From Patescibacteria group bacterium (lineage in GTDB: Bacteria; Patescibacteriota; Minisyncoccia; 2-02-FULL-40-12; IGHO2-01-FULL-4-A), in assembly GCA_038064015.1 (NCBI GenBank), contig JBBTUB010000023.1:369-64368 (forward strand): 64,000 nt of DNA, written 5' to 3'. The position numbers and the translations under genes are program-made. Below the pieces are notes generated by a model. That model worked only from the letters and a program-made list of their open reading frames with translations, made no database searches and was not told the DNA's origin. Every line of letters starts with the position of its first letter. The stretch's first letter is position 1. Shown here in pieces: positions 44,227 to 64,000 of this stretch.

Positions 44227-44262
44227 AGGAGACAGGTCATGCCACGTGCCCCCTAGTACCCG

Positions 44263-45531: not shown

Positions 45532-45893
45532 CGGAATAAATCGTCGTCTGAAGCTCCATATGATCGCATCGTGACATATGCATCATACAAAAGCGATTCA
45601 AACGGCTCGAGATACTGAGCGGGGCTTCCAGTTTTTGGTATCACTTGAAGGCTACTGTATAAGAAATTTGCTAATTTGGAATTTTCGGTGGCAAATCTTT
45701 GGTAGTATGGTTGGTCTCGATAGATGGCAGGGTAGCTGTCCGGCGGCGCGGCAAAAAGAAGATAGAAGTTATGATATCGAGGCACACCACGGGCATCCCT
45801 TCTTTTAAATTCCGCAAGGCTAAGTACATCCCGATTCGCTTCATCGAGCGTTGGCGGCATGGACGGCTTTGTTGGATCTCCTGGTTCAGACAT
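45528..45893 (-). CDS. hypothetical protein (121 aa)
   Basis: ORF with an ATGA overlap with purM. The composition is host-like. No motif recognised. Confidence 0.4.
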   Translation of the reverse strand: MSEPGDPTKPSMPPTLDEANRDVLSLAEFKRRDARGVPRYHNFYLLFAAPPDSYPAIYRDQPYYQRFATENSKLANFLYSSLQVIPKTGSPAQYLEPFESLLYDAYVTMRSYGASDDDLFR

Positions 45894-45942
45894 AGAATAA
45901 TATTTTACACGATATTCTCATATTCTTAAGAATACCAGAATG

Positions 45943-46710: not shown

Positions 46711-47642
46711 ACTTGATATTTCTTTAAATTCTTCTCAATCCGCTTTGCGATCGGAGTGGCGCCGGGCTTGAATTTTTTGCCGGTGAGTTGCTCGTAGATT
46801 TGGATGTAGCGGCGGGAGAGCTCGACGATCATCGCGGGCGGAGCGGCGGGGAGAATTTTGTCTTTATAGGGATCGCAATGATCTTTAAACCACAACCGCA
46901 AAAATTCTTTGTCAAAAAACTCCGGATCCAGGCCGGCTTTGAAGCGCTTGGCATACGTCTTGGCCATCCACCAGCGGCTGGAGTCCGGCGTGTGGATCTC
47001 GTCGATCAAAGTTAATTTGCCCTTATCATCTAAACCAAATTCATACTTCGTGTCCACGAGAATTAAACCATGCTTGAGGGCGATTTTTTGTCCGCGCAGG
47101 AAAAGCTTCATGGCGACGGATTGGATTTTTTTCCAAAGCTTCGCGTCCACGATGCCTTGAGCGACGATTTCTTTGGAGGTGATCGGCCGGTCGTGCTCAT
47201 CCGACTTGGTCGTCGGGGTCAGCACGGGTTTTTTGAGCTTTTGATTCTTCTTCATGCCGTCGGGAAGCTTAAAATCCCCAAAATCGCGCTCACCAGCAGC
47301 GTAGATCGTCCACAGTGACGTATTGGTCGTGCCGGTGATGTAGCCGCGCATGACGACCTCGATGGGAATGACGGTGCATTTACGACCAACGACGACGTTG
47401 GGGTCGGGATTGCTGATGACGTGGTTGGGGACGATATCTTTAGTACGATCGAACCAAAAGAGGCTGGACTGTGTCAGCACCTGGCCTTTATGCGGAATGT
47501 GCGCGATGATGCGGTCAAACGACGAGTGACGATCGGTGGAGACGAGGATGATTTTATCCTCCTGGACGTAGATATCCCGTACCTTGCCGATTTTCTTCGT
47601 GCCGAGATGTTTGAGGTTAGTTGCTGGTAAGATATTTTTCAT
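46707..47642 (-). CDS. purC: SAICAR synthetase
   Basis: A long-form PurC (GKVRDIY...[11 protein letters not shown]...LVDTKYEFG) starting at MKNILPATN. The ORF-track extension to 47900 is spurious. Confidence 0.9.
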
Positions 47643-48120
47643 AGCCGAGTTTTTGTAATTTATCTGCTTTTTTTGCGACGCCGTCAGCGAGAGATTTTTT
47701 AAAGTCAGAAAACTTCTTGGCGAGCCCTGTGTCGGATGTTGCCAGGATCTGAATCGCAAGAAGTCCGGCATTGCGGGCGGAATTGATACCGACCGTAGCA
47801 ACTGGGATACCCGGGGGCATTTGGACAGTCGAGAATAGCGCGTCCTGGCCGTTGATCGGGACACCGATGACCGGCAAAGTTGTAAGCGCCGCCGTAACAC
47901 CCGCTAAGTGCGCTGATCCGCCAGCTCCGGCAATGATAACTTTCAATCCACGGCTGATTGCAGTCGTCGCGTATTCATGCGCACGCTCCGGGCTGCGATG
48001 GGCCGAGCAAACCGTGATTTCAAACTCCACACCAAATTCTTCGCAGACTTTGGCCGCTTCCTGCATGACTGGCAAATCCGAATCCGATCCCATAATGATA
48101 CCGACGAGTGGTTTAGTCAT
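47617..48120 (-). CDS. purE: N5-carboxyaminoimidazole ribonucleotide mutase
   Basis: It has [13 protein letters not shown] and [10 protein letters not shown], the class I PurE motifs. Confidence 0.93.
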
Positions 48121-48132
48121 GGTGATAATGTA

Positions 48133-49254
48133 TCATGACAATGCCTTCGCGCCAATATCCTTACGAAACTGCTTTCCCTGAAAATCAATCTTCGCCACGC
48201 CAGCATAGGCGCGATCGATGGCTTCTTGGAGCGTGTCGCCGGTCGCACTTACACCTAGCACTCTTCCCCCTGAAGTTTTGCCATCAACCATTCCTGCCGA
48301 AAATACAACAACCCCCGGCAGGCTTTCCGCTTCTTCGATGCCCGTAATCGGAAAGCCTTTTTCATATGAGCCCGGATAGCCAGCCGAGGCCATGATGACG
48401 GTCGCCGCAAAGCCGGGATGCCATTCAATATTTATTTTATCCAGTGTGCCGTCAATGCAATGCTCGATAATTTCAACCAGATCAGTCTTGAGCAATCGCA
48501 TGTAGCTCTGCGTCTCCGGATCACCAAAGCGCGCGTTAAACTCCAAAACTTTTGGACCGTCCTTCGTAATCATGAGTCCTGGATACAATATGCCTTTGTA
48601 ATGTAATTTTTTTACGATTTTACTGACGATGTCTCCTGCCACGTCCCCCAGTACCACGTTGGGTACTGGGGCTATGACGCCCATTCCACCCGTATTTGGT
48701 CCTTTATCGCCATCAAAAATTGTCTTGTGATCCTGCGCCGTCGGAAACATTTTGAATGTTTTCCCATCGCAAAACGCGTGCGTCGAAATTTCAATGCCCT
48801 CGAGATACTCTTCGATCACGACTTCGTCGTCAGTGATTGCCGCGAGAGCCTGCTCTGCTTCTTCCATCGTCCAGGCCACCGTCACGCCTTTGCCAAGCGC
48901 CAGGCCGCTTTTTTTGATGACGATCGGCACGTGCGGAATATGATCGTACTGCTTGGCTGTCGGGATGCCGAGCTCACGCATGAGTTCTTTCGCAAAAGCT
49001 TTTGACGCTTCGATCTGTGCCATGGCTTTGGTGGGGCCAAAGATCTCCAATCCTGCTTCCTGGAATGCATCTACGATGCCATCCGCAAGATATTGGTCAG
49101 GACCGACGATGGTCAGATCAAAATTGCGCCCGTACTCGACGAGCTCGGGAATCGTGCCGACTTTCATTTCGGCGGTGTGGCCGTCAGATCGCACTTTCCA
49201 CGCTATCGCGTGTTCTCTGCCGCCGTTGCCAATGATGAGAATACGTTTTGCCAT
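48133..49254 (-). CDS. purD: phosphoribosylamine-glycine ligase (GAR synthetase)
   Basis: It starts ILIIGNGGREHAIAWK and has an ATP-grasp core. The C-terminal 51 nt overlap the next ORF. Confidence 0.92.
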   Translation of the reverse strand: MAKRILIIGNGGREHAIAWKVRSDGHTAEMKVGTIPELVEYGRNFDLTIVGPDQYLADGIVDAFQEAGLEIFGPTKAMAQIEASKAFAKELMRELGIPTAKQYDHIPHVPIVIKKSGLALGKGVTVAWTMEEAEQALAAITDDEVVIEEYLEGIEISTHAFCDGKTFKMFPTAQDHKTIFDGDKGPNTGGMGVIAPVPNVVLGDVAGDIVSKIVKKLHYKGILYPGLMITKDGPKVLEFNARFGDPETQSYMRLLKTDLVEIIEHCIDGTLDKINIEWHPGFAATVIMASAGYPGSYEKGFPITGIEEAESLPGVVVFSAGMVDGKTSGGRVLGVSATGDTLQEAIDRAYAGVAKIDFQGKQFRKDIGAKALS

Positions 49255-49718
49255 AGCTTATTTTCTTTTATTTTTAATCGTGTGTAAAGGCTGTCCACGG
49301 TGTCATCGGGCTGTATTTTTTCAAAACACCGAGCCAGTACCGGGCCAAAATCGAACTCGTGAGTCAAACGATGAATACTGGAGCCGGCATAGGTCGCTTT
49401 CTTGTCTAAAAAATTCTTAATCGCCTTTTCTTTGTATTTGCCTTTATTCCAAAGGCCATCCGTGCCGTCAGGGCATATCACGTGGCCGTCTTTCGTATCG
49501 GGAATAAGTCCCGGGTGTATATTGAGAATTTTATAATTCTCGATTACTTCATCCGGTATGATTTGCTTCCAACCCGTGAGACACACATAGTCCGGGGCAA
49601 GCGACTTCAGGTCATCGAGATTTTGCGTAAGGATACCGACAACATCAACACCCGTGGCACGAATAGCCGCTAAATTGGTGCCTGCGCCGTCTGGTGGCAT
49701 GAGAACAACGACTCTCAT
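49203..49718 (-). CDS. purN: phosphoribosylglycinamide formyltransferase (short form)
   Basis: NIHPGLIP is the formyl-transferase motif. SIHRLTHEFDFGPVLAR is the catalytic Asp region. At 171 aa it is shorter than typical PurN. Confidence 0.7.
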   Translation of the reverse strand: MRVVVLMPPDGAGTNLAAIRATGVDVVGILTQNLDDLKSLAPDYVCLTGWKQIIPDEVIENYKILNIHPGLIPDTKDGHVICPDGTDGLWNKGKYKEKAIKNFLDKKATYAGSSIHRLTHEFDFGPVLARCFEKIQPDDTVDSLYTRLKIKENKLWQNVFSSLATAAENTR

Positions 49719-51160
49719 GACAACGGCAGGGTCGGGGTGAGTTTTTCGGGAGGCGAGCTGGGAGCACTTACTTCACGGGTACGTTCACGCAGATCGATCG
49801 GATACTCACCAGTAAAGCAATGCGTGCTGAATTTAAGTGGATCAATTCCGGTCGCGGTGAGCATGCCCTGGAGCGAAAGATAGTGCAGCGAAGCAGCGCC
49901 GATATATTGCCGGATTTCTTCGTTGTTCTTCGTAGCGGCGATCAAGTTGCGCTGATTGGGCGTATCAATGCCATAAAAATCGGGAAACTTGATCGGTGGC
50001 GAGCTGACCAGAAAATGGACTTCTTTGGCTCCTGCATCCAAAATACTACGAACGATTTGTCCCGACGTGGTACCGCGCACAATCGAGTCATCTACGAGTA
50101 CTACTCGTTTGCCTCGGAGAACGTTGGGAAGTGGCGTGAGCTTGAGCTTGACCCCAAGATCGCGCGAGTGCGGATCCGGCTCGATGAACGTGCGGTGAAT
50201 ATAGCGATTTTTGACTAGTGCCATTTCAAGCGGCATGCCGGTCGCCTGCGAATAGCCAAGCGCCACGGGAATCGCCGTCTCCGGCACGGGGACGACAAGA
50301 TCAGCCGTAATTGCTGTCTCACGGGCAAGCTGGGTACCAAAATTGTGCCGGACGTCGTAGACCGACTTGCCCAGCAGTTCGCTATCAGGACGCGCGAAGT
50401 AGACGAACTCAAAAACATCAAACTTGGGGGTCCCCGGCTGGATCTGGACCGACTCGATCGAGCCCTCCGTCACGATCACCATCTCGCCCGGCTCGATCTC
50501 GCGGACAAAGTCGGCGCCAATGGTCGCGAATGCGCAGGTTTCGGATGCAAAGACGATGCCGCCATTGAGCTTCGCCATCGCCAGCGGCCGCATGCCATAG
50601 CTGTCGCGGATCGCCGCCACGCTGTCCTTGGTCATCACCACAAGTGAAAACGCTCCGGTGAAGAGCGGATAGGCGGTCGTGATCGCTTCTTTGAGGGTGC
50701 AGCCGTTTTTAAAAAAATAACTGATGGCGTGTGCCATCAGTTCGGAGTCATTCAAGTCAGCAACGGGAATATTTTTTGACTTGAGAAAATTTTCCAGAGC
50801 AATCGTGCTGGGAAGATTGCCATTATGAGCCAGCGCGAGCTCGGGTCCCGAGTCTGTCGAGCGGTGGCCAATGACCACCGGCTGCGCGTGGGCAATGCCG
50901 GTCGCCTTGGACGTCGAGTAGCGATTATGCCCGATCGCCAGGTGCCCGCTCAATCGATGGATATCACTTTCGGAATACACATGCGTTACCAGGCCGGTGT
51001 TCTTGTAGCATTGAATGGCGGTGCCATCGCTTGTCGCGATGCCGGAGCTTTCTTGACCGCGATGCTGCAAGGCAAAAAGCCCATAAAAGGTAAGTCGACT
51101 GACATCCATGCCCTTGCCATAAATGCCAAACACGCCGCATTTTTCATTCAGCTCGCTCAT
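49715..51160 (-). CDS. purF: amidophosphoribosyltransferase
   Basis: An Ntn Cys2 (MSELNEKCGVFGI) is followed by a GATase II domain and the PRTase motif VVLVDDSIVRGTT. Confidence 0.95.
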   Translation of the reverse strand: MSELNEKCGVFGIYGKGMDVSRLTFYGLFALQHRGQESSGIATSDGTAIQCYKNTGLVTHVYSESDIHRLSGHLAIGHNRYSTSKATGIAHAQPVVIGHRSTDSGPELALAHNGNLPSTIALENFLKSKNIPVADLNDSELMAHAISYFFKNGCTLKEAITTAYPLFTGAFSLVVMTKDSVAAIRDSYGMRPLAMAKLNGGIVFASETCAFATIGADFVREIEPGEMVIVTEGSIESVQIQPGTPKFDVFEFVYFARPDSELLGKSVYDVRHNFGTQLARETAITADLVVPVPETAIPVALGYSQATGMPLEMALVKNRYIHRTFIEPDPHSRDLGVKLKLTPLPNVLRGKRVVLVDDSIVRGTTSGQIVRSILDAGAKEVHFLVSSPPIKFPDFYGIDTPNQRNLIAATKNNEEIRQYIGAASLHYLSLQGMLTATGIDPLKFSTHCFTGEYPIDLRERTREVSAPSSPPEKLTPTLPLS

Positions 51161-51813
51161 GTGAAATACTTAATTGCGTTTTTAAAAATTTGGATGCCGT
51201 GTCCTCCGCGTTGCCAGGGGAACTGCGCCCGCTCCGGGTGCGGCATCATGCCCAGCACTCTCCCATCATATCCCAAAACCCCCGCGATGTCATCTGTCGA
51301 GCCATTGGGGTTTTGGACATAGCGAAACGCCACCTCAATCTTGCCGTTTTTGATATATTTGCCTTCTCCATGCGCAATCGGCACTTCCAGTTTGTTGATT
51401 CCTTCGAGCCATGGGCTCTCGCCGATTTTTTCAATTTCTACCCACGTCGAGATATAGCGCTTGCTGTCATTGTGTGTGAGCGCCCCAGGAAGAAGTCCCA
51501 TGTTGGTCATGATTTGAAAGCCGTTACAGATACCGATGGCCAGCGTGTCGCGCGCAATAAATTTTTGGATCTCATCGCCAAGCTTCGCTTTGAGCTTATT
51601 CGCAAAGGCTTTGCCTGATCCTGTATCATCGCCAAATGAAAAGCCTCCCGGAATGACGAAAATCTGATAATTTTTTAAGCTTTGTAAATCATTCACATGC
51701 ACAATCTCCGCCTTCGCCCCGGCCGTCTCAAACGCAAACGCCGTCTCGTCTTCGCAGTTGAGGCCATAGCCAGAAAGGACTAGGACCTTAGGTTTTAGCT
51801 TCGTTAGCTTCAT
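51157..51813 (-). CDS. purQ: FGAM synthase glutaminase subunit PurQ
   Basis: Class I GATase with GICNGFQ (Cys) and HPER. It begins with a tandem 9-mer repeat encoding KLTKLKPK. Confidence 0.9.
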   Translation of the reverse strand: MKLTKLKPKVLVLSGYGLNCEDETAFAFETAGAKAEIVHVNDLQSLKNYQIFVIPGGFSFGDDTGSGKAFANKLKAKLGDEIQKFIARDTLAIGICNGFQIMTNMGLLPGALTHNDSKRYISTWVEIEKIGESPWLEGINKLEVPIAHGEGKYIKNGKIEVAFRYVQNPNGSTDDIAGVLGYDGRVLGMMPHPERAQFPWQRGGHGIQIFKNAIKYFT

Positions 51814-51828
51814 TAGCTTAAATTAGGC

Positions 51829-51860
51829 TTGACATGATGATGATGATGATGATGTAAAAT
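51829..51860 (+). promoter_or_regulatory. promoter of cassette 5: TTGACA-(ATG)7 spacer (20 nt)-TAAAAT
   Basis: Consensus -35 at 51829-34. The microsatellite (ATG)7 runs 51834-51854. The -10-like TAAAAT is at 51855-60, about 25 nt before the ATG. Confidence 0.5.
51834..51854. repeat. trinucleotide microsatellite (ATG)7
   Basis: Exact 7 units, read directly. On the other strand it creates a spurious His7-encoding ORF. Confidence 0.95.
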
Positions 51861-51884
51861 CATACTCGAAAGTGAGGTGGCCAC

Positions 51885-52112
51885 ATGGCTACATTGACCG
51901 ATTCTTCGAAGAGGAAACTCGATTCGCTCGAACGCGGAGAGGGATTCGTCAGCATCCGCATGGACCAGGGGACGCTGGCAAACCAACTCGCCGAGATGAG
52001 CGAGGCCGAACTGAGGGGTGTCCTGAGGAAGCTTCGGAACACGACCGACGGCTTCAAGGGGTTCCACGGCAAGCTCAACACCTCGCTCACCAAGCTCCTC
52101 GAGCACGAGTAA
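51885..52112 (+). CDS. GC-rich orphan cassette 5: 75-aa hypothetical protein
   Basis: GAGGTGG SD 4-5 nt before the ATG. MATLTDSSKRKLDSLERGEGFVSIRMDQGTLANQLAEMSEAELRGVLRKL may be HTH-like. A terminator follows. Confidence 0.5.
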   Translation: MATLTDSSKRKLDSLERGEGFVSIRMDQGTLANQLAEMSEAELRGVLRKLRNTTDGFKGFHGKLNTSLTKLLEHE

Positions 52113-52138
52113 CCTCTCCTCGTTCTCTTCCTCCCGCG

Positions 52139-52167
52139 CCGGACCCCCTGTGGTCCGGCTTTTTTTA
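52139..52167 (+). terminator. intrinsic terminator of cassette 5
   Basis: ccggaccccctgtggtccgg is followed by ctttttttat. Confidence 0.65.
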
Positions 52168-52220
52168 TTCCTACACGACATTCCAACATTCTTGAGAATG
52201 TGAGAATGTCGCTCGTATGG

Positions 52221-54806
52221 TTAATAATTTTTGAATGTTTCATGGTAGGCATCGGTGGCTGCTTTGATTGATAGGGTAACGGCGTGAGTGTCCTTTTGGA
52301 TTACGATCGTAGATGAAAGGGACACGGTGCCAATCTGCTTGGCATCCGGTAGCGCCTTTTCAAATGCTTTTTGATTTTCGGGCGAAATTGAAACAATTAT
52401 TCCTGACATTGATTCGTCATTCTTCATTCGTAATTCGACATTCATACCCAGCTGCCCCCCAATCGCGGATTTTGCCAGCGCCACATAAACTCCACCACGC
52501 CCGATACTGATTCCTGAATTGATGAGATTTTTCTGGACGGCTTTGAAGTAAGCTTTTAGGTTGTAGGTGTTAGCTTTTAGGAGATAGATTAAATCGCCGG
52601 GGGTTTTGAGATCTTCAGTCACCGTCTTCGTGACATCGGGAATCACACCAAGCGCAGAGATCAGTAGTGTAGGCAGGATCGAAATCTTGATCGGCTTGCC
52701 AGCGGCATCATAGCCTTTGAAGTCATTGAACATGCTGTCTTTGCCGGAAATAAACGGCGTACCGTAGGCGACCGCGGTATCGTACGCGCCGCGGCAGGCT
52801 TCTTTGAGTTGCCAGAGCCGCTCGGGATCGTTGGAACTGCACCAGCAAAAATTATCGAGCAAAGCGATATAGTCCGGATCGGCGCCGATCGCAACGGCAT
52901 CTTGGATTGCCTGTTCGATCACATACTTCGCCATTTCATAGGGGTTTTCTTCGGTCATCTCGGGCGCTAACGCATGACTCATGACAATGCCGCGTTTTGA
53001 TCCCAGCACGGGTGCCAGCACCGATGAGTTGCCATTAATCATCCCCTTCCCCTGGAGCGGACCAATGACTGCGGTACCTTGGACGGTGTGGTCGTACTGG
53101 CGAGAGACAAATTCGTAGCTTGTGATATTTGGACTCGCCAGTAGTTCTAAGAGTTTTTGATTTGATATTTTAGAATTTGAAATTTGTTTGTGATTTGGTG
53201 CTTGTGGCTTGGTGCTTTTTTGTATCTTCACCGGACGTCCGTCATGCAAAAACTTCATATCAAGATCCAGTACCGTCTTACCATGATACTTCACGACGCA
53301 TTTTTTTGATTTTGTAAATTTCCCGATCACCGTCGCCTCAACACCGCGACGAGCCATCAGGTCGCTAAATTTCTTCCATTTTGAGGGTGGCACAGCCAGC
53401 GTCATGCGCTCCTGTGACTCCGAGATCCAGATTTGCCATGGCTCCAGGCCCGGATATTTGAGCGGAACTTTATCGAGCTCGACTTCACAGCCGCCTGATT
53501 CTTTTGCCATTTCTCCGACGGAGCATGACAAACCTCCTGCGCCGTTGTCTGTAATACTGTGATAGAGGCCAAGGTCGCGTACTTCTCTAATAAGGACGTC
53601 ACTGAATTTTTTTTGAGTAATCGGATCACCGATCTGGACAGCAGAGGCGGGACTAAGCGGATTTAAGGATTCTGATGAAAATGTCGCTCCATGAATGCCA
53701 TCAGCACCCACGCGTCCACCCAACATGACAATGTAATCGCCGGGCAAAGCTTTTTTGATATGCGATTGTTTGCCGTGAACTTTTCTAGGGATCAGGCCCA
53801 CCGTCCCCGCAAATACCAAGGGCTTCCCTCGGTAGCGATCATCGAAATACAAGAATCCTTGCGGCGTCGGAATGCCCGATTGATTACCACCGGCATTGAT
53901 GCCCTCGATGACGCCGTCCATAATTTGACGCGTAGAAAGCATCGGTTGGGTGAGCCTCACATCACGATATAGTTTTTGAATATTATTCAATGGAGCCAGA
54001 CAAAATCCATACACATTTGCGATCGGCTTCGCCCCAAGTCCAAATCCGAGAGTATCGCGATTGACTGCGACAATTCCGGTAATCGCTCCTCCGAACGGAT
54101 CAATTGCCGAAGGCGCATTATGCGTCTCGACTTTGTGAGTGATGAGATAGTTATCGTCAAATGCAATCGCCCCTGAATTATCACTAAAAACTGAAACGCA
54201 GAATTTTTTGTTTATTTTCTTCGTCGCGGCTTTTATATAGTGCCGGTACAGCCCATCTTTGATCTCATCGAGCGGATCGGCAAAAATCGTATGCTTGCAA
54301 TGCTCTGACCAAGTCTGCGCCAACGCTTCAAGCTCGACATCAGTCACCACGTTTCGGTAATCTCTGATCGCTCGCATCGAAGCAAGGTCAAGCGCAAGCG
54401 TGCGCTCTTGGCTTATTTGCATCAGCTCTTCGTCGCTGACATTGAGATCGATTTTTTGGGCCTGGTGCGGTGGTGGGAGCACGACTCGAGGAACAGGCAA
54501 AAATTTATTTCTCGACGCACGCTGGATTAAGGGATTAAAAGCAGGCGGGTTTTTGAAATAAATACTCGAGGAATACGTGCGGTGGCCGAGCATTTCGGTT
54601 GCCGTATTGCCGACGTTATCAGTCACCCCCGGCAAAAACCCAATCTCAATAAACGGCGGCTTTGCCGTGATCACTTCCTCAATGAGCGGGTTAAGCAAAA
54701 GCGCTGTACAGCGCTTGATTTCTTTCGCAGAGAGACGGGCATCGATCGTATACACCGAGGCCTTTGAGTTGTCGAGTCTTGAGATAATCGTGATCCAGAC
54801 TGCCAT
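52221..54806 (-). CDS. purL: FGAM synthase subunit PurL (small-PurL type) with a ~110-aa N-terminal extension that may be PurS-like
   Basis: WSEHCKHTIF is the PurL linker motif. Tandem AIRS-like domains (DNGAGG..., GKDSMFND...) follow. The extension has an LPGVTDNVGNTATEMLG segment loosely like the PurS V.DPQG.A....L..LG motif. Confidence 0.9.
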   Translation of the reverse strand: MAVWITIISRLDNSKASVYTIDARLSAKEIKRCTALLLNPLIEEVITAKPPFIEIGFLPGVTDNVGNTATEMLGHRTYSSSIYFKNPPAFNPLIQRASRNKFLPVPRVVLPPPHQAQKIDLNVSDEELMQISQERTLALDLASMRAIRDYRNVVTDVELEALAQTWSEHCKHTIFADPLDEIKDGLYRHYIKAATKKINKKFCVSVFSDNSGAIAFDDNYLITHKVETHNAPSAIDPFGGAITGIVAVNRDTLGFGLGAKPIANVYGFCLAPLNNIQKLYRDVRLTQPMLSTRQIMDGVIEGINAGGNQSGIPTPQGFLYFDDRYRGKPLVFAGTVGLIPRKVHGKQSHIKKALPGDYIVMLGGRVGADGIHGATFSSESLNPLSPASAVQIGDPITQKKFSDVLIREVRDLGLYHSITDNGAGGLSCSVGEMAKESGGCEVELDKVPLKYPGLEPWQIWISESQERMTLAVPPSKWKKFSDLMARRGVEATVIGKFTKSKKCVVKYHGKTVLDLDMKFLHDGRPVKIQKSTKPQAPNHKQISNSKISNQKLLELLASPNITSYEFVSRQYDHTVQGTAVIGPLQGKGMINGNSSVLAPVLGSKRGIVMSHALAPEMTEENPYEMAKYVIEQAIQDAVAIGADPDYIALLDNFCWCSSNDPERLWQLKEACRGAYDTAVAYGTPFISGKDSMFNDFKGYDAAGKPIKISILPTLLISALGVIPDVTKTVTEDLKTPGDLIYLLKANTYNLKAYFKAVQKNLINSGISIGRGGVYVALAKSAIGGQLGMNVELRMKNDESMSGIIVSISPENQKAFEKALPDAKQIGTVSLSSTIVIQKDTHAVTLSIKAATDAYHETFKNY

Positions 54807-54809
54807 ATG

Positions 54810-55874
54810 CTAGTGTAGCAGAGGCGGAATCTTTGAGTCAATCAGGAAGATAATAATGCCGATGATCGCCCCAATGGCGGAGACCATCCAAAAACGCATG
54901 GTGACTTTGGTCTCATGCCAGCCTTTTGCCTCAAAATGATGATGAATGGGCGTGGAGAGAAATATTTTTTTGCCACGGAATTTTTTGGAAATCATTTGCA
55001 CAATTACCGAGAGCGATTCAAAGACAAAAATGCAGCCAATAGGAATCAGCAACAGCGGAGTATTCGTCAACATCGCGATCACCCCCAGCACCACACCCAG
55101 CGACATAGATCCCGTGTCCCCCATGAAAAACCGTGCCGGAAAAATATTGAACCACAAAAACGCCACGAGCGATCCCATGATCGCGCCGATAAACGCGACG
55201 AGATCAAGCCGCCCCTGGTCAAAGGCGATGACACCGTAGGCGCCGAGGCTCGTCAAAAAAATCCCCGCGGCCAGGCCATCGAGGCCGTCAGTTTCGTTGG
55301 CCGAAAACGCCGTCGAGACAATCACCACAATAAAAAACAATAGATACCAGCCTCCAATTACCACATCGCCAAGAAATGGGACATTGATCGAGTTAAATTC
55401 CAGCTTGTAATAAAACCACCACGCACCAATCGTCGCGATGATGAGATACAGTAAAATACGAAGCTTCATCTGGAGTCCACCGCCGTTGGGACCTTTTTTG
55501 AAAACGCCAAAAAGATCATCGAAGCCTCCTAGAACTCCGGCAAATACCATGACCGCCAAGGGTAACCAGGTTTGGGGTCGCGAGAAAAAATTTACCCGAT
55601 CCCAAAAGGTTGAGAATAGCGTCAAGAATGCCACGGTCCCCCACACGAGCACGCCTCCCATCGTGGGAGTTCCCTCCTTGGCTTTGTGAAGCTCATGAAA
55701 CACCGGCGCCGAATCCGATGAGCGAAGCTGCTTGCCCAAGCGATATTTAAAAAGGATCCGTGTCCAGAGCGGCGTGAGCGCCAGGGTAAGAAAAAACGAA
55801 ATCGCCACGACCGCGAAAATTCGGACGACGTTGAATACATTAAAAATCTCTGCGACGTCTACGGTTGTTCCCAT
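54810..55874 (-). CDS. mraY: phospho-N-acetylmuramoyl-pentapeptide transferase
   Basis: Ten TM segments with the DDLFG, NETDGLDGLA and HHHFE motifs. Confidence 0.93.
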   Translation of the reverse strand: MGTTVDVAEIFNVFNVVRIFAVVAISFFLTLALTPLWTRILFKYRLGKQLRSSDSAPVFHELHKAKEGTPTMGGVLVWGTVAFLTLFSTFWDRVNFFSRPQTWLPLAVMVFAGVLGGFDDLFGVFKKGPNGGGLQMKLRILLYLIIATIGAWWFYYKLEFNSINVPFLGDVVIGGWYLLFFIVVIVSTAFSANETDGLDGLAAGIFLTSLGAYGVIAFDQGRLDLVAFIGAIMGSLVAFLWFNIFPARFFMGDTGSMSLGVVLGVIAMLTNTPLLLIPIGCIFVFESLSVIVQMISKKFRGKKIFLSTPIHHHFEAKGWHETKVTMRFWMVSAIGAIIGIIIFLIDSKIPPLLH

Positions 55875-56788
55875 GAATGTGCTTTTTTACCCCACGCGAT
55901 TAAGTTCGCCATCTCGACAAATCGTTGATCCGACCCCAGCACGACGGCAAGAAGCGTATCTTCACGATCCCCGACACGCACCGCCAACGTGAGCGTGCCC
56001 TTAGCTCCCGTGGTATTACCAGTCTTCCCGAGAATAATACCGCTCAGCGTCGAAAGCAACTGGTCAGTATTGATCGCACGATAGCCTTTCCCTGCCTCAG
56101 ACGTGATCGAGATTTCTTTGGATCGCAAGGCTTCGCCAATGAGCGGATAGGCCTCCGCGGCTCGCAGCATCGTGATCACATCGGTCGCGGTGGAGTACGT
56201 GTCGGCATCGCTCAATCCCGCCGGATCATCGAAGTGAGTATTGGCCATGCCAAGCGCCTTTGCTTTTTCATTCATGAGCCCGACAAAATTAAGTCCCTGG
56301 CGATACGCGGTCGTCGCGAAGACCGACACGGCATCGTTGGAGGATTTGACGAGCATGATTTTAAAAAGATCGGCCCCCAGAAACTTCTCGCCTCGCGCAA
56401 AATCCGCTCCCATGCCATCAAGATTACGGTCCTCGGCGGAAACTTCATACATCGCGCCAAGATCAAGATGATCAAGAATCACCATGGCGCTCATAAGCTT
56501 GGTGATAGACGCAATCGGAAGACGAGCCTCGGCGTTTTTGGCATAGAGCACGCGATTGCTTTTGGCATCGATAAGCAGTACCGCGCGCGCTTTCATATCC
56601 GGCTCGGCAATATTGAAATCGCGAACCGGCGAATAGGATGCCTGGGAAACGGGGAGGATAAAAGCCTGGACGTTTTCGATAATGGCAGGGGGGAGCGGCT
56701 CGCCCGGCTGCCCGGCAGGGTGCCATAGCAAAAAACCTCCGATTCCCAGTACCATGCCGATCAATAACGTAAACGCGGTTTTTTTCAT
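55859..56788 (-). CDS. D-alanyl-D-alanine carboxypeptidase (peptidase S11, PBP5-like)
   Basis: A signal peptide is followed by SITKLM (SxxK), SSND (SxN) and KTGNT (KTG). Confidence 0.8.
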   Translation of the reverse strand: MKKTAFTLLIGMVLGIGGFLLWHPAGQPGEPLPPAIIENVQAFILPVSQASYSPVRDFNIAEPDMKARAVLLIDAKSNRVLYAKNAEARLPIASITKLMSAMVILDHLDLGAMYEVSAEDRNLDGMGADFARGEKFLGADLFKIMLVKSSNDAVSVFATTAYRQGLNFVGLMNEKAKALGMANTHFDDPAGLSDADTYSTATDVITMLRAAEAYPLIGEALRSKEISITSEAGKGYRAINTDQLLSTLSGIILGKTGNTTGAKGTLTLAVRVGDREDTLLAVVLGSDQRFVEMANLIAWGKKAHSWEQP

Positions 56789-58340: not shown

Positions 58341-58395
58341 ATGAGTATCCTACTATGAAATGGGAAAATAACAAAGCCCCTCGGAATCATATCAC

Positions 58396-58425
58396 TTGAC
58401 TCATTGATATAATATATGCTATACT
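58396..58425 (+). promoter_or_regulatory. sigma70-like promoter of cassette 6 (TTGACT-18 nt-TATACT)
   Basis: It reads ttgactcattgatataatatatgctatact. The spacer carries ATATAA at the same offset as the cassette 2 promoter. Confidence 0.5.
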
Positions 58426-58473
58426 ATTATCACGCTGGTAACAGGGCCAGCAAGATCAAGGAGTGGTATCATT

Positions 58474-58914
58474 ATGAGTCAGTTGGAAGTCGTTTGCATC
58501 GGCGTCATCATCGGCATCGTTTTCCTGATCGTCGGCTGGTACGCCGGCAAGAAGTCAGGGAAGAATGTGGGATTCGACTGGGGGGTTGGGCAGTTCAAGA
58601 AGCGCCTCCTCCCTGGAGACAAGCTGGTCGCCATCGGGGGGCCCTTCGACTTCGTCCGCATACTGCAGGATCGGGGACTCTTCAACAACTACCAGCCGGT
58701 GACCCATGTCATGGCCGCGATCATCCGCAAAGAAGCTGGCGGCGAGGTCCTCCTCAGGACCGAACTCGCCGAAGAGAACTTCGCGGACGGGGCGACCCTA
58801 CACAACGTTACCCACGGCGACAACATGTACGTCAACACCGGAGGCAAGGTCGAGAGAGGCGACATGCCCGACGTGATCCTACGCGTTGTCAACAGCAATC
58901 GCAGGGTCGTCTGA
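58474..58914 (+). CDS. GC-rich orphan cassette 6: 146-aa N-terminally membrane-anchored hypothetical protein
   Basis: AAGGAG sits 10 nt before the ATG. The TM helix LEVVCIGVIIGIVFLIVGWYAG precedes a soluble domain. A terminator follows. Confidence 0.55.
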   Translation: MSQLEVVCIGVIIGIVFLIVGWYAGKKSGKNVGFDWGVGQFKKRLLPGDKLVAIGGPFDFVRILQDRGLFNNYQPVTHVMAAIIRKEAGGEVLLRTELAEENFADGATLHNVTHGDNMYVNTGGKVERGDMPDVILRVVNSNRRVV

Positions 58915-58960
58915 CCGACGACTAACCCAGTTCCGACGTCCGTCTCGTCAACGGCAATCC

Positions 58961-59001
58961 CCCGGAGCTCGACCTAGTCGGCTCCGGGGTGTTCTAATTT
59001 T
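58961..59001 (+). terminator. intrinsic terminator of cassette 6
   Basis: cccggagc-tcgacctagtcg-gctccggg is followed by gtgttctaatttt. Confidence 0.55.
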
Positions 59002-59008
59002 ACTCACT

Positions 59009-60004
59009 TCATGTCTGTAATTCAGAGAACCAATAATTGACATCGTTGGTTATTTCCCGCATCGCAAACGCAATCCCCTCTTGGTCTTTTTCTTGATAGG
59101 TATGCGCAAGTTTACCAATTCCCACATAGATTCTCCAAAGATTGAAATTGAAATCAAAATTTCTAGAAAAAATCTCTCGGTCGGTGTATCCGGCCATGAG
59201 GTCATTCACCTCATAGCTATCTTTATGAGAGAAGTGCCAGCGCGCAAAATCAAGTATCGGATCCCCTCCCTCTGCCATTTCAAAATCTAGGATGCCGACT
59301 ACTTTTTGATCTTCGACTAAAATATGCTTCGGCTCAAAATCATTATGTACCAGGTGTGGTTTAATACTCGGATATGACACAGCCCCCCGCTCCATGATTT
59401 CAAAAGCTCGCAAAAGTACCGCCTCATCAAATCCGGTGGCCTTTGCGATTTCAAGCATTTTTGCTTTCCCGATATACAGGTCGGTGAAAACTTCTTGAAC
59501 TGACGAATACCTGCCTTTGCCATATTCATCAAATAACCCAAAGCCCTCCACCGGTATTGAGTGTATTCTTGCAAGAATTCCACCAGCTTGAGTCAATAAA
59601 GATCTTTTCTCTTCATTGGTCAACGTACCTACCTCATCAAAGGGAGTCCCGGGCAGCTCAGACTCTATCGATGCATTATAGGCAACGCCTCCAATATGCA
59701 TCGTGTCAATTAGTAAAACTTTTGGGACAGAAATACCTGCTTGTAAACATTGCTCAAGAACCCACTGCTCTTCTCGTAATCTACTGTACCCTGTGTCACG
59801 AGAAATCCGTACGACGAACTTTTCTCCTGATGTAACCGTGACAGTATACACTTCATTACTCTTCCCTTTGACCATTCTTTCCATTTTCTGTATGGGAGAA
59901 GATGCGATTCTTTGAACGAGTGCTTCAATGGCTTGAACCGGAGCAGTCTCGGTTTCTGCTCTGCGTCGAGCAGGAGCGCCCAGATATATTGGATTTCTAT
60001 CCAT
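59009..60004 (-). CDS. APH/choline-kinase-family phosphotransferase (protein-kinase-like)
   Basis: HNDFEPKHILV is the catalytic loop and ILDFEMAEGGDPILDF is the DFG-equivalent region, of Pfam APH type. Confidence 0.7.
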   Translation of the reverse strand: MDRNPIYLGAPARRRAETETAPVQAIEALVQRIASSPIQKMERMVKGKSNEVYTVTVTSGEKFVVRISRDTGYSRLREEQWVLEQCLQAGISVPKVLLIDTMHIGGVAYNASIESELPGTPFDEVGTLTNEEKRSLLTQAGGILARIHSIPVEGFGLFDEYGKGRYSSVQEVFTDLYIGKAKMLEIAKATGFDEAVLLRAFEIMERGAVSYPSIKPHLVHNDFEPKHILVEDQKVVGILDFEMAEGGDPILDFARWHFSHKDSYEVNDLMAGYTDREIFSRNFDFNFNLWRIYVGIGKLAHTYQEKDQEGIAFAMREITNDVNYWFSELQT

Positions 60005-60014
60005 GAGATAACGA

Positions 60015-63000
60015 TCAGAATCTTCTTCTTAAGAGTTTTTCCCGAGTGATGACAGCTCTCCGCTTATCATCCGCACCAGCTACCTCGCTGGTAATCTCAA
60101 ATCCAAATTTTTTGAACAATCCCGGATTACTGCCAACAATCCACGAGGTCGCGGAAACTTCTTTGATGTCCGGATTAGCAGCCACAATTTCCTTTAATTT
60201 TTTGAATCCACCTTTTAGCAATTTTAGCTTCTCAAACATACCGAGATCTGAAGCAGGAGCCAAATGAATATGCATATCGCCCCTATTGATTCCATAGAAA
60301 AAGATTTTATTTACTGCGAAAAGGCCGAATAACTCACCGAATAATTCTCGTTGCATTGGAACGAATACTCCAGGATGTTTTTCGAGCGCAACCGCAATAG
60401 GCCGCAGAATGCTATTGACGCGGGAATTAAACTCGTCCTTTCCGCTTATGGTCTTACATGCTTCCAGTTGACGTGTTAACTCTCTTGAGGTTGTACCCAA
60501 TCCTAAATTACGCAATACACGATCGTTGAGTCCTTTACCCAATAATTTGTTTAAGGAATCAATTCTTTCCGGATTCGAAGAGAACTTATTCATGTAGTTC
60601 TGCAGCTGAGTTTCCATGACTCCTGGGTTCAGATTTATCTCTTCTTTTTTAGATCGATCTCGAATGTATTTTTCTGTCGGAAGCGGGGAACTTTGCCGAC
60701 GGTATCCAAGCTTCCATCTTTTTTCAGTCCTATATACTCGTATGAGATCTGTGATTCGCTGCATGCCTTCAGGTTTCAATTCCAATAAATCCCTCGTAAA
60801 AACATAGTCCTTATCTTTCTTTAGTCCCATAAAGGTCATCGTCCGCTTCATGACCTCCTGAGGGATCGTACTTCCTGAAGGATACAGGTTTTTTAGAAAG
60901 CCGTACAAAATCTCCATCTGTTTCTGGTATTTCTCGAGGAGTTCCGGTTTCGGATCCGCGAATTCGCTGATGCCCACGAGCAATTCATCCAATGATTTAT
61001 TTTTGAGGGCTTGATTCTCAAAATCCGAATATGGGTCAATGTCCCGTGCCACTCCATCGATGAAGCGTCGCGGACTAGAACTCGCACGCAAGCCAGATGG
61101 CTTTGCGGTAAGCGTATTGGGTATCACCACTCCAGGCTCAGGACGCGAAGCGCGCAAAATAGATATCTTTTGTCCGATATCCATATCCTCTCCAATAACT
61201 TTCCCTGCATCGTATCCGCCAATCTTTGCATATACCTCGGCAGTATAAGCGGTATTCCATCCGCCGCTAATGACACGATTCCACACAAAATTTGATTCGG
61301 GATTGATCTCTGGCCGATATCGCATATCCCGCAATAATATCTCCGCCATGTCCCATGCACGTCTGGCAAAAAACATAAGCGCGTTTTTTTGTAAAACCTC
61401 AGGTTGACGGTCTTGGAGACCTCTCAGAACATCAACTGATGGGTCCGCATCAAAATCAGCGATCAATTTTGATACCGTCCGCTTATCAACGCCAAACATA
61501 TCAGCATCTTCGGACTCGATATAGAGCGGACCATCAGCTCTTGTACGTGAGGTAGAGCGCAAAAGCACAGCATCAGTGACATATTTTCTTGCCAAGCCAA
61601 CCCTGGCTTTATCATCCTCAAATGCAATATCAATGACATTGACATGAATGTTGGGATGAGCCGCTTTCCATGCGTTAATGACTTCTACCGTGTCGTCGGG
61701 CGTTTCTGATTGCTTCCGATTGACAATAACGTTGACCTCATAGAGATCGGGATCCACTGCCGCACCACCTTTGCCAACCTGCTTTGAATATTGATCGAGT
61801 AGATTCCCGATACTCTTGGATTCAAAGCGGGCAGGAATATTGATGGCAAGCCGGCACTTCTCATGCATCGGAGCAAGTTTACTGACTATTTCCTGCAATT
61901 CAGTTTTGTATTCTGGTTTTTCTTTGTCCAAATAGCTTGATATAGCTGATCGCTCATCTTCTACGCTTCGAGTGATCTCTGATCCATCCGCATGCCGCAT
62001 CTCAACTTTGCCGTCGCGATCAGATGCTACATACGGTTCTGGCACGATTCCACGAGCCTCAAAATATTTATCGATCTCGCTAGGAGAACCGCCACCATAG
62101 TACAAAAATCCGGTAAGGTCCGGCTTACGTTTTTTTGTCGGCTCTAATGGTGTTCGGGGAATAAGTGGGATAGATACCGGAAGATCAACCTGAGACTCGG
62201 GAGGCGGCGGGTAAAATCCAACATCAACCTCGTCAATGATTTTTGTCTCCGGCACCATGCAAGGAATGCTCGTAATGCCTTCGCCTTCGTAGGTTGCGAG
62301 AATACGCACATGCTCAACGCCATTTCTCTCTCCCATCGACTGGGCGATTTCTGCAAATCGGCCATTATACACGGCCTGACCATTGGCATCTACGGAGAAA
62401 AGTCCCGCTTTCATTGCCTCAGCGCCATCTCCGGAATTTGGATCAATGATCACGTCGCCGTGCGTATCGACGGGAAATTCAAACACTTGATTTTGTGTCT
62501 CGCGGCTCAAAGAAAATAGTGCTTTGAGTGTTCCACCTTCATTAATGAGCTGCGGCGTATCCACCGATTCCGCACCGTGGAATGATCCTCCGGATGTCAT
62601 GCGAGAAACATTGAAAACAAACTTATGATCCGCGGTGAGTCCAGTGTGATTTTCCCCACCCCAAAGCAAACTGCGTTCGTTAAACTTCTCAAAAATGGGC
62701 GCCGGTGTGTCATCGTCGTACCAGAGACGACGTTTGATCGTATGCGTTCCCGCAGGGTTATCGTGCAGATACTCTTCGGGAGATTGGGGCTTTTGAACGT
62801 TCTCAGTAATAATATGCGGGGTATGAGTTGTGTTGACCAAAATTCCCGCATCGGCCAGCGCCTTATCAGTTTCCGGCGGAAGAGAACCGTCAGGATTGAG
62901 TTTGAAATGCGAAGCTATCGCATGACCTCCATCATTTTGAACAAGATTATACGTCCCGTCGGGATTTTGCGTAAATCCGTATCCTTCCGGCACACGGAAT

Positions 63001-64000
63001 TCCACCTGGTGGTTATTGAAATCGAGCGCTTCGTGCATGACGTTATGGACGCCATGCGTGGGTTCGCCATTCCACCATCCTCGCAATGATTTCGCAACCC
63101 ACCCGAGAGGAGTATAGTGCCGTGACCCGTCCGGCCATACTTGCTCGGGCCCCATGATATTCGAACGCACGTGTCCAACGATCGCCGCACCCTCATGAAA
63201 TACTTCCCCTGCAATAAGGCCCGTGATGACCCCGCGCAAAGCCGATCTCCAAGCTTTGCTGTTTTTCATTTTCCTAAATCCTTGGTTCTTTCGTTCCATG
63301 TCGCCATCCCCGGCAATCAGCAAAGCTCGCTCCTGAAATGTAGCATTTTGGATTTCATGGGGAGTACGACCTAAGTTCTGCAATTTTATTTTTGCTTTGG
63401 CAATCGCCTCATCAAGTAATCGCCGCTCTTTATCAACAACTTTCTTATCGGAATACGCAATGAGGTCAATGCTTCTTTGGTCTGAAAGCTGTACCCGAGC
63501 CTCCGCAATGCCGAGTGATCCAAGTATCCGATCAGCATCATCGCCTTCAAGGGCGGCAGAAATCGAGTTCGTAAGTTCAGCAGCGGATTCGGTATGATAT
63601 CGATACTCCTCCATTTCCTTACGAACGGGGGCATTATCAGCATCGAATGTCTTGCCTTGTGCCATTTCACGGGCATGCTGGCGACGTAAGTCTTCAAGAC
63701 GAAGCCGCTCACGCTCCGCCGCTATCGCCCCGGTTACCAGCGCCGATCCCCCAACGGTCAGTGCCATCGTTGCTTTGTTTCGAGCCAATGCCTGGGCTGA
63801 TTTTGTAATGAGTGAGTATGCGGTCGCCACCCCGAGCGCTACCGTACTTTCGTTGACGAGACCAAATGTTTTCTTGTGAATCCAATTGGAAATTTTATCT
63901 ACGGTATTATATTGCGCTTCGGTACGGACACCGCTTTTTGCCTTTCCGACAACGACGTCAAAGTCAAAATCGAGTTCGTCTATGCTCTTGCCTTGATCAA
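60015..64000 (-). CDS. giant multidomain protein (>1328 aa), with its N-terminus beyond the window end: unknown N-region, central GT2-like domain, C-terminal GNAT-like domain
   Basis: The reading frame stays open from 63830 to 64000 with no stop. IESEDADMF (DxD) and GGWNTAYTAEVYAKIGGYDAGKVIGEDMDIGQKI are the GT2 signature. The C-terminal SATSWIVGSNPGLFKKFGFEIT is an acyl-CoA N-acyltransferase-like motif. Confidence 0.6.
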   Translation of the reverse strand, partial: DQGKSIDELDFDFDVVVGKAKSGVRTEAQYNTVDKISNWIHKKTFGLVNESTVALGVATAYSLITKSAQALARNKATMALTVGGSALVTGAIAAERERLRLEDLRRQHAREMAQGKTFDADNAPVRKEMEEYRYHTESAAELTNSISAALEGDDADRILGSLGIAEARVQLSDQRSIDLIAYSDKKVVDKERRLLDEAIAKAKIKLQNLGRTPHEIQNATFQERALLIAGDGDMERKNQGFRKMKNSKAWRSALRGVITGLIAGEVFHEGAAIVGHVRSNIMGPEQVWPDGSRHYTPLGWVAKSLRGWWNGEPTHGVHNVMHEALDFNNHQVEFRVPEGYGFTQNPDGTYNLVQNDGGHAIASHFKLNPDGSLPPETDKALADAGILVNTTHTPHIITENVQKPQSPEEYLHDNPAGTHTIKRRLWYDDDTPAPIFEKFNERSLLWGGENHTGLTADHKFVFNVSRMTSGGSFHGAESVDTPQLINEGGTLKALFSLSRETQNQVFEFPVDTHGDVIIDPNSGDGAEAMKAGLFSVDANGQAVYNGRFAEIAQSMGERNGVEHVRILATYEGEGITSIPCMVPETKIIDEVDVGFYPPPPESQVDLPVSIPLIPRTPLEPTKKRKPDLTGFLYYGGGSPSEIDKYFEARGIVPEPYVASDRDGKVEMRHADGSEITRSVEDERSAISSYLDKEKPEYKTELQEIVSKLAPMHEKCRLAINIPARFESKSIGNLLDQYSKQVGKGGAAVDPDLYEVNVIVNRKQSETPDDTVEVINAWKAAHPNIHVNVIDIAFEDDKARVGLARKYVTDAVLLRSTSRTRADGPLYIESEDADMFGVDKRTVSKLIADFDADPSVDVLRGLQDRQPEVLQKNALMFFARRAWDMAEILLRDMRYRPEINPESNFVWNRVISGGWNTAYTAEVYAKIGGYDAGKVIGEDMDIGQKISILRASRPEPGVVIPNTLTAKPSGLRASSSPRRFIDGVARDIDPYSDFENQALKNKSLDELLVGISEFADPKPELLEKYQKQMEILYGFLKNLYPSGSTIPQEVMKRTMTFMGLKKDKDYVFTRDLLELKPEGMQRITDLIRVYRTEKRWKLGYRRQSSPLPTEKYIRDRSKKEEINLNPGVMETQLQNYMNKFSSNPERIDSLNKLLGKGLNDRVLRNLGLGTTSRELTRQLEACKTISGKDEFNSRVNSILRPIAVALEKHPGVFVPMQRELFGELFGLFAVNKIFFYGINRGDMHIHLAPASDLGMFEKLKLLKGGFKKLKEIVAANPDIKEVSATSWIVGSNPGLFKKFGFEITSEVAGADDKRRAVITREKLLRRRF

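Follow-up and report, generated by a model that had tools for sequence, protein, structure and literature searches.

At one end of a 64,000-nucleotide (nt) stretch of DNA from a Patescibacteria group bacterium (contig JBBTUB010000023.1; the whole stretch is called the window here) lies a minus-strand gene for a very large protein, the giant gene, with a kinase gene directly behind it. A preliminary description of the window, made from its letters alone, had the frame starting at 60015 stay open to the window end. Translation agrees: the frame at 60015-63998 comprises 1,328 codons, and its sole stop is the terminal TGA at 60015-60017. How far does the gene extend? An exact-sequence look-up of the kinase protein among ENA and Logan contigs identified a contig, L060, that shares 12,992 nt with the window at 0 mismatches and reaches 4 kb further. 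Read from L060, the complete gene encodes 1,517 amino acids (aa); the window starts at residue 191, 190 residues lie beyond it, and the true start is 568 nt past the window end. Sequence beyond 64000 was what the preliminary description had asked for to check its very large multidomain protein, with an in-frame stop or an assembly chimera as the outcomes that would undo it. The extension contains neither, and the protein holds up at 1,517 aa with a GT-A glycosyltransferase (GT) core. Because three independent assemblies (L060-L062) carry the gene, it is not a chimera. The contigs with the kinase protein come from Hainich groundwater 0.1-µm filtrates, and the source is an ultra-small groundwater bacterium. 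The NCBI record of the giant protein, truncated at the contig end, is MEK7583310.1, 'hypothetical protein AAB483_02820, Patescibacteria group bacterium'. The window-aa numbering used below counts from the first residue that the window contains, and full-length numbers are window-aa + 190. The giant gene, its parts and the kinase gene are laid out as follows.

60015..64000, minus strand: giant gene, 3' 87% (full-length residues 191-1517 plus stop), from the open frame and the identical contig L060.
63717..63773, minus strand: helix A, Gly/Ala-rich (window-aa 76-94), the 'TM' (transmembrane) segment of the preliminary description; Kyte-Doolittle 1.53, Hessa-scale sum +2.86.
63252..63716, minus strand: conserved charged helical segment (window-aa 95-249); R126 and D178 invariant and many residues near-invariant in alignment A1.
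63168..63251, minus strand: helix B, glycine-zipper-like, with conserved QE/HE (window-aa 250-277); preceded by a K/R-rich stretch and modelled by AlphaFold2 (AF2) as one long helix.
62199..62996, minus strand: beta-rich domain (window-aa 335-600), signature LWYDN/DDTP...NEL...WGG; AF2 pLDDT mostly >90.
62100..62210, minus strand: proline-rich linker (PPPPESQ...IPLIPRTPLE), consensus PPxIPxxGRxPLE; left breakpoint of the exchanged cassette.
60690..62099, minus strand: predicted GT-A (GT2-like) module (window-aa 634-1103; full-length 824-1293), core 61065-61850; AF2 pLDDT 89.5.
61500-61508, minus strand: DxD motif of the GT module, D831-A-D833 (window-aa), motif DAD.
60018..60701, minus strand: lineage-specific tail (window-aa 1100-1327), a helical part plus a truncated GNAT-like alpha/beta part at 60018-60440.
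59009..60004, minus strand: APH/choline-kinase-family gene, 331 aa, 10 nt after the giant's stop; PF01636, E 3.6e-25.

Family membership and the DUF5663 partner

Exhaustive phmmer comparison with 1.84 billion cluster representatives returned 1,489 relatives of the giant protein at E<=1e-3 and 494 at E<=1e-30. A word-indexed search gave 22 homologues of 980-1,640 aa, two of which carry a source-given name, 'hypothetical protein' in both cases, and repeating the homologue search with the family alignment A1 yielded no additional sequences. Scanning one genome per GTDB species from motif seeds gave 50 loci in as many assemblies; the assembly labels are Saccharibacteria, Paceibacterota, Minisyncoccia, Moraniibacteriota, Nomurabacteria, Doudnabacteria, Kaiserbacteria and Parcubacteria. 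The labels Gammaproteobacteria, Bdellovibrionales or Babeliales attached to the metagenome-assembled genomes of L021, L024, L025, L032, L034, L042, L043, L045 and L052 look doubtful; one of these loci lies on a contig of 717 kb, about as long as an entire Patescibacteria genome usually is. By homology, then, the giant gene is a member of a large, undescribed family that is spread across Patescibacteria. The family alignments used below were built from 33-34 full-length sequences, and domain counts were taken from 170 collected family sequences.

What accompanies the gene? Directly upstream of it stands a DUF5663 gene in all five contexts that we examined. With a hidden Markov model made from those five DUF5663 proteins, the partner was found upstream on the same strand in 42/42 informative genome loci, the other eight of the 50 being cut off at a contig end. 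The gap is below 150 nt in 38 of these 42 and mostly 0-35 nt. On L060 the arrangement is tighter still: the 103-aa DUF5663 gene occupies 3125-3436, the giant gene runs from 3437, and the TAA of the one abuts the ATG of the other. The partner protein is about 100 aa long, acidic and helical, and besides it no neighbour is conserved across the giant loci examined. In every informative locus, giant gene and DUF5663 are encoded together, with translational coupling likely.

The whole family is without a Pfam or NCBIfam model and without mention in the literature that we searched. That literature did not mention 'DUF5663' either, and held nothing on the family under Patescibacteria, Saccharibacteria or glycosyltransferase; the only remark on the topic, in a pilus paper, is that Saccharibacterial glycosylation is unexplored. 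The lack of model and mention extends to the scaffold with its beta domain, to the pairing with DUF5663 and to the tail coupled to a kinase, while the enzymatic parts are of known kinds. The features that define the family, the DUF5663 gene and the scaffold with the WYDN/DDTP signature, are both present at the window locus.

Architecture and location of the giant protein

The scaffold takes up the ~820 N-terminal residues and consists of a helical domain, two Gly/Ala helices flanking a charged helical segment, and the beta-rich domain. Does any of it cross a membrane, as the TM segment placed near the N-terminus in the preliminary description would have it? We summed the Hessa biological hydrophobicity scale over 19-residue windows. 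Helix A, at +2.86 kcal/mol, is the best segment in the whole giant protein, and helix B lies above +4.5. No segment at or below 1.5 kcal/mol was found in any of 144 full-length relatives (median +3.8). As controls, an MraY-like protein encoded in the window gave about ten segments at -1.2 to +1.8, and a small open reading frame (ORF) near the kinase gene gave -2.2. The supposed TM segment is only a marginally hydrophobic Gly/Ala helix (+2.9) and a weak candidate for an anchor; the scan found no canonical TM helix anywhere in the giant protein, which also has no signal peptide. For these two reasons, and because the partners fused to some relatives are of types that need cytosolic ATP or metal, we infer that the protein is cytoplasmic, perhaps membrane-peripheral.

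Two conserved hydrophobic helices do, all the same, bracket a well-conserved helical segment, and among the outputs found in the family are pairs of Hanks kinase and PP2C, a combination typical of signalling. Both features could belong to a two-pass TM receptor-like enzyme in which the 155-aa charged segment would be an outward sensor and cytoplasmic GT, kinase or phosphatase outputs would answer an external or host cue. Such a topology would use helices that are poor TM candidates (+2.9 for A, above +4.5 for B). It would also leave the K/R-rich flank of helix B outside, against the positive-inside rule: K and R number 5.5 on average in the 15 residues before helix B, versus 1.06 in the 15 after it (n=34). 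We regard a receptor of this kind as unlikely.

The most conserved motifs of the family in alignments A1 and A3, LWYDN/DDTP, NEL and WGG, fall in the beta-rich domain, the first as LWYDDDTP at window-aa 425-432. The AF2 model, built with 34 sequences, has a mean pLDDT of 79.9 overall and >90 over this domain, for which Foldseek found no structural relative (best E 0.31 in PDB and 0.16 in BFVD). As modelled, the domain is a confidently predicted, unrecognised fold. The preliminary description had recorded here a region of some 400 aa with no recognisable motifs; neither Pfam nor NCBIfam matches it, as that wording implies, yet it holds a conserved beta-rich domain.

Behind the proline-rich linker the protein is of a more familiar kind. 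Compared with PDB by Foldseek, the modelled GT module has 21 matches at E<=1e-3, all of them GT-A enzymes and mostly GT2. The best is PcManGT from Pyrobaculum calidifontis (PDB 6yv7, E 1e-9), and others include WrtF, BcsA, hyaluronan synthase (HAS), K4CP, chitin synthase, GtrB and the GT81 enzyme GpgS, also GT-A. In window-aa numbering the motifs are DAD (831-833), GGWN (912-915), GED (936-938) and SPRR with R977/R978; across 33 sequences D831, D833, N915, E937, D938, R977 and R978 are invariant or nearly so. The model is that of a GT-A glycosyltransferase fold with an intact active-site signature: a predicted DxD metal and nucleotide-sugar site, an ED base and an RR pair. The GT-A/GT2 core (DxD, GGYD...EDxD) proposed in the preliminary description thus stands, by model, Foldseek and the conserved DxD/ED/RR residues alike. 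PDB sequence searches with the C-terminal half and with a whole-family profile returned noise only.

With GT2 enzymes of the GT-A type (PcManGT, GtrB, K4CP and the GT domains of BcsA, HAS and chitin synthase) the giant has in common the Rossmann-like GT-A fold, the DxD, an ED acid pair that follows the GG(W)N strand, and basic residues past the core. Foldseek E values against these structures run from 1e-9 to 1e-3, but identity is 9-16% only. Unlike them, the giant has 820 aa of conserved scaffold, for which Pfam holds no model, ahead of its GT, and it has an obligatory DUF5663 partner gene. Could it be a processive polysaccharide synthase embedded in the membrane, like those that make cellulose, hyaluronan or chitin, polymerising and exporting a surface glycan? 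The Foldseek matches to the GT domains of BcsA, hyaluronan synthase and chitin synthase (E 3e-6 to 5e-4) would suit this, as would a GED and an RR placed reminiscently of the TED and QxxRW motifs. Yet there are no TM helices around or after the GT, and no membrane channel such as BcsA, HAS and chitin synthase have; the sequence is SPRRF instead of QxxRW, and the top Foldseek match is a non-processive GT2 mannosyltransferase. The swap of GT2 for a GT-B/GT9 domain in a minority of members is moreover incompatible with a channel-coupled synthase. We consider this explanation very improbable. Pfam and NCBIfam gave the giant protein one match, to PF13641 and below threshold, and nothing else; no known exopolysaccharide synthase family claims it. 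Assignment to such a family was an outcome that, according to the preliminary description, would speak against its account, and it did not come about.

The GT2-like module occurs in 157/170 family sequences, a sample selected with a GT2-containing query, and in a minority of members a GT-B/GT9 domain replaces it. Further back, the C-termini vary: other family tails hold PP2C, a calpain-like protease, DUF362 or, once, a hydrophobic segment with YkuD. In the last case, P0034, the GT is followed by a K/E-rich linker, a hydrophobic segment resembling a signal peptide and a YkuD L,D-transpeptidase domain, past which lies a stretch with ES...GITQ...AYN motifs reminiscent of lytic transglycosylases. 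Either the gene is truly fused to cell-wall enzymes here, or two gene calls have been merged. As a topology marker the TM segment with YkuD was kept as weak evidence only, because the gene calls are possibly fused. P0037 and P0100 share a further C-terminal domain (...WYASQPY...GVWRYLPGY...MFCRD...) that has no Pfam match.

Probable kinase coupling and the exchangeable catalytic half

An APH/CotS-type kinase had been noted immediately downstream of the giant gene, and it is there on the same strand, with a PF01636 score of 89.5 bits (cut-off 23.2) over residues 46-256 of 331. The protein has the HxD catalytic loop VHNDFEPKH and the metal-binding motif LDFE. In place of the terminal Asn of HxDxxxxN it has His, as does the orthologue at L063 (HGDFTPKH). 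Its best PDB relatives are hygromycin and aminoglycoside kinases (E ~1e-4), and PF01636, the HxD loop and the DFE motif are common to it and the known APH enzymes (hygromycin-B 4-O-kinase, APH(2'') and the macrolide phosphotransferases). It differs from them in the His for Asn, in scores 10-30 times under every resistance-enzyme cut-off (12-24 bits against NCBIfam resistance models with cut-offs of 205-725, the best being 24.2 against 620), and in being tied genomically to a giant GT, not to a resistance or salvage context.

Does the pairing recur? Co-occurrence in other genomes was among the checks that the preliminary description had put forward, and L063 encodes an orthologous pair: its giant, P0023, is 45% identical with the same architecture, and an APH gene follows 15 nt on, with 42% identity over 330 residues. 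Behind the two tail-bearing giants that are more remote, P0004 and P0050, the same tail domain as the window's is followed by a separate gene for a Hanks-type kinase (loci L002 and L066); these kinases share 47% identity. Altogether a separate kinase gene lies directly downstream in 4/4 informative tail-bearing loci (APH-type 2, Hanks-type 2); the fifth such locus ends at the giant gene and is thus uninformative. Some 54 loci that lack the tail were searched iteratively, and none yielded a separate kinase gene. In 12/170 representatives a Hanks kinase is fused to the giant itself (PF00069, E 1e-20 to 1e-27). Kinase domains homologous to the L002 kinase are fused at the giants' C-terminus in L014, L015, L018 and L043, a gene-fusion ('Rosetta-stone') link between GT scaffold and kinase. 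APH-like and Hanks-type kinases were considered as sequence homologues of each other and rejected as such (BLASTP E 0.08). The two are not detectably similar, and the slot after the tail appears to demand a kinase in general, not one kinase family. Family members that fuse PF00069 kinase and PP2C domains to the GT recall the Hanks-type kinase/PP2C signalling pairs, from which the window kinase differs in being APH-type, with no significant similarity to the Hanks type. Functional coupling of the giant's tail with the adjacent kinase is suggested by this pattern; the association is suggestive, not proven, because the four loci are not phylogenetically independent. To our knowledge, no covalent coupling of a kinase to a glycosyltransferase has been described.

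The tail itself, about 230 aa, is restricted to 4/170 relatives (P0023, P0004, P0050 and P0056). In alignment A4 of the five homologues its motifs HxHxxP..D and SATS are invariant. Is it the C-terminal acyl-CoA (coenzyme A) N-acyltransferase-like domain that the preliminary description made of it? By DSSP, the last 140 residues of the AF2 model have the element order aa-bb-a-b-a-bb, resembling the C-terminal two-thirds of the GNAT fold, and about 100 columns superpose in Foldseek on the GNAT proteins 3owc, 5jph and 7ovu (probability 0.99, E 0.05-0.08). Set against a complete GNAT (b1-a1-a2-b2-b3-b4-a3-b5-a4-b6), strand 1 and one central strand are missing. No Pfam family matches at E<=5 and none is common to the five homologues, a PDB profile search returned no GNAT chain at E<=10, and the CoA-binding motif A (Q/R-x-x-G-x-G/A, b4-a3) is absent. 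In its place stands HLAPASDLGM, where APxSDL is invariant and the P and D are invariant in all five. The fold likeness thus survives in part, while the GNAT sequence signal and the CoA motif do not: the tail's GNAT identity is weak, a partial resemblance of the predicted fold only. A tail-profile search found fragments and one stand-alone 238-aa Nomurabacteria protein, whose neighbours (tRNA synthetases and an M16 peptidase) are uninformative.

These findings bear on the function first proposed for the locus, a glycan or secondary-metabolite decoration module in which GT, GNAT N-acetyltransferase and APH kinase would modify a small molecule (amino-sugar, aminoglycoside-like) in turn. An APH kinase with hygromycin and aminoglycoside kinase relatives, a partial GNAT-like fold, a GT-A domain and the operonic arrangement with its 10-nt gap would all fit. 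But biosynthetic genes are absent nearby, Hanks-type protein kinases fill the kinase slot in two same-tail lineages, the tail has neither acetyl-CoA motif nor GNAT sequence signal, and the NCBIfam resistance scores lie far below cut-off. The core family is also Patescibacteria-wide, not sporadic. Lacking biosynthetic context, and with a Patescibacteria-wide family and its obligatory DUF5663 partner to account for, we find the decoration module distinctly unlikely.

The tail and the kinase gene sit within a larger segment that differs between close relatives.

58380..62205, no strand: variable cassette, 3.8 kb, replaced relative to the syntenic relative L001 (blastn, L060 versus L001), with a GC shift.
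58474..58914, plus strand: orphan 146-aa ORF with a canonical N-terminal TM helix (TM sum -2.24); third-position GC (GC3) 0.82 versus 0.39-0.60 in its neighbours.
58959..58989, no strand: GC-rich hairpin, ~13-bp stem with one bulge, between the convergent APH gene and small ORF, read from the sequence.

L001, which encodes the giant P0001, is syntenic with the window in DUF5663, the giant's N-half, the aspartyl-tRNA synthetase (AspRS) gene, the S11 peptidase, the MraY-like gene and PurL. Nucleotide similarity ends at 62206, inside the proline-rich linker, and comes back at 58379, just before AspRS; at the protein level, homology of the giant to P0001 ends at window-aa 633. Between these points the window has the linker, GT2, the tail, the APH gene, the hairpin and the small ORF, and L001 has a GT9 module and two unrelated small genes. 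Those two, in the slot of the APH gene and small ORF (L001 5817-7135), are a 169-aa gene with a weak DUF6165 match and a 242-aa gene without a Pfam match; they may be accessory genes matched to the GT9 cassette. GC content falls from 0.50 in the giant's N-half to 0.446 in its C-half and 0.435 in the APH gene, and rises to 0.594 (GC3 0.82) in the small ORF. The N-half is closest to P0001 (59%) and P0002 (52%), both without a GT2 module, P0001 having a GT9 domain. The closest relatives of the GT2 half are 50-55% identical there, and their N-halves just 27-38% identical to the window's. From the synteny break, the distinct composition and the discordant nearest neighbours of the two halves, the catalytic half, along with its accessory genes, behaves like an exchangeable unit that recombines at the linker.

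Why exchange the catalytic half at all? One answer would be that the giant is a host-directed, contact-dependent effector of an episymbiont, whose glycine-zipper N-module inserts into or crosses a membrane with DUF5663 as its chaperone; we think this improbable. We think it just as improbable that its swappable eukaryote-like payloads (GT-A or GT-B, Hanks kinase, PP2C, calpain-like protease) are exposed or injected into a host. The comparison, one of logic only, is with polymorphic and large glycosylating toxins, which combine a conserved N-part and linker with swapped C-terminal enzymatic domains and a downstream gene; GT-A is a recurring module of the large glycosylating toxins, as it is of the giant family. 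The mosaic exchange of the C-terminal enzymatic cassette with its GC shift, payload types typical of toxins and effectors, the signal-anchor-like charge bias at helix B and the small acidic helical partner gene directly upstream all agree with an effector. Unlike polymorphic toxins, the giant has no secretion or trafficking domain, immunity gene or toxin family in Pfam, PADLOC or NCBIfam, and the GT2-like module is mostly conserved. It is present in 157/170 and hardly polymorphic, though the query biased that sample. There is one detected locus per assembly (50 loci, 50 assemblies), always in a housekeeping neighbourhood, with no immunity-like gene pattern, recognised secretion signal or secretion-system neighbour. 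Genes downstream of giants are kinases or housekeeping genes, not cognate immunity genes. The PADLOC defence models gave no match and no toxin family was detected, and the match of the GT to that of PaTox is insignificant (Foldseek E 0.064, probability 0.51).

Proposed function and genomic setting

What, then, might the giant protein do? We think it reasonably probable that it is a 1,517-aa cytoplasmic GT-A enzyme of a DUF5663-paired, Patescibacteria-wide family, with a kinase-linked tail and an exchangeable catalytic cassette. Such an enzyme would transfer a sugar from a nucleotide-sugar by an inverting, Mn/Mg-dependent mechanism. The acceptor would be a macromolecule, either a protein or an envelope precursor, which the beta-rich domain and DUF5663 may help to recognise, with the proline-rich linker joining this scaffold to the catalytic GT-A domain. 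The tail would work with the downstream kinase, which might phosphorylate the same product or regulate the enzyme, possibly at the invariant SATS motif.

Several observations weigh against this cytoplasmic GT-A enzyme. The giant protein scores just 16 bits (E 0.013) against PF13641 (Glyco_tranf_2_3), under the cut-off of 27 that the homologue P0009 exceeds at 28.8 bits. The K/R asymmetry looks like that of a signal anchor, and if helix B spanned the membrane, the beta domain and GT would face the cell exterior. The hydrophobic segment and YkuD behind the GT of P0034 point to some envelope link, or maybe to a gene-fusion artefact. Finally, the tail-kinase association may reflect one ancestral event.

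Why does the family matter? The Patescibacteria, or candidate phyla radiation, account for much of bacterial diversity, and no function has been assigned to most of the conserved proteins that are particular to their lineages. Here are ~1,500 diverged cluster representatives with a strict two-gene organisation, a modelled domain without detectable structural relative, and a catalytic GT core repeatedly wired to kinases or phosphatases by fusion or adjacency. The family offers a concrete, testable entry into the almost unexplored glycosylation and signalling biology of Patescibacteria. That the catalytic cassette recombines suggests diversifying pressure on specificity, exerted for instance by phage, by the host or through surface recognition. 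Should the enzyme serve ordinary envelope glycosylation, the value lies mainly in annotating a very common 'hypothetical protein'; were it an effector, it would represent a new class of contact-dependent effector, with a logic parallel to large glycosylating or polymorphic toxins.

The small ORF of the cassette, very atypical in composition for a genome of ~50% GC, is convergent with the APH gene and lies inside the exchanged segment. It is the hypothetical protein MEK7583308.1, a singleton cluster in a 15-billion-protein collection, and a promoter-like site precedes it at 58396-58425. It is the 'membrane-anchored cassette' of the preliminary description. The TM helix is real enough, but membership in a repeated cassette or conserved module was rejected, with no paralogue or homologue in the window or related loci. 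The hairpin beside it is probably a bidirectional terminator that would end the DUF5663-giant-APH transcription unit; a simple terminator scan missed it because it has no T-run.

Neighbours of the giant gene in the window are AspRS, a D-Ala-D-Ala carboxypeptidase, an MraY-like gene and purine synthesis genes; no biosynthetic-cluster genes lie near it there, which leaves secondary metabolism without evidence. On L060, a 360-aa ORF with a weak GT2 match (PF13632, E 8.6e-5) lies upstream of the DUF5663-giant pair at 736-1818, ~2.2-3.3 kb past the window end, along with three more ORFs that have no Pfam match above the curated cut-off. On the minus strand at 42588-54806, the window has a near-complete de novo purine run (IMP dehydrogenase, PurM-like, PurC, PurD, PurF, PurQ and PurL), which stands out, since a lack of nucleotide biosynthesis is reported for many Patescibacteria. 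Next to it, on the same strand at 54810-56788, there is a 16-nt overlap between an MraY-like GT4 gene and a gene for an S11 D-Ala-D-Ala carboxypeptidase. The two are syntenic in L001, so that peptidoglycan genes adjoin the variable cassette.

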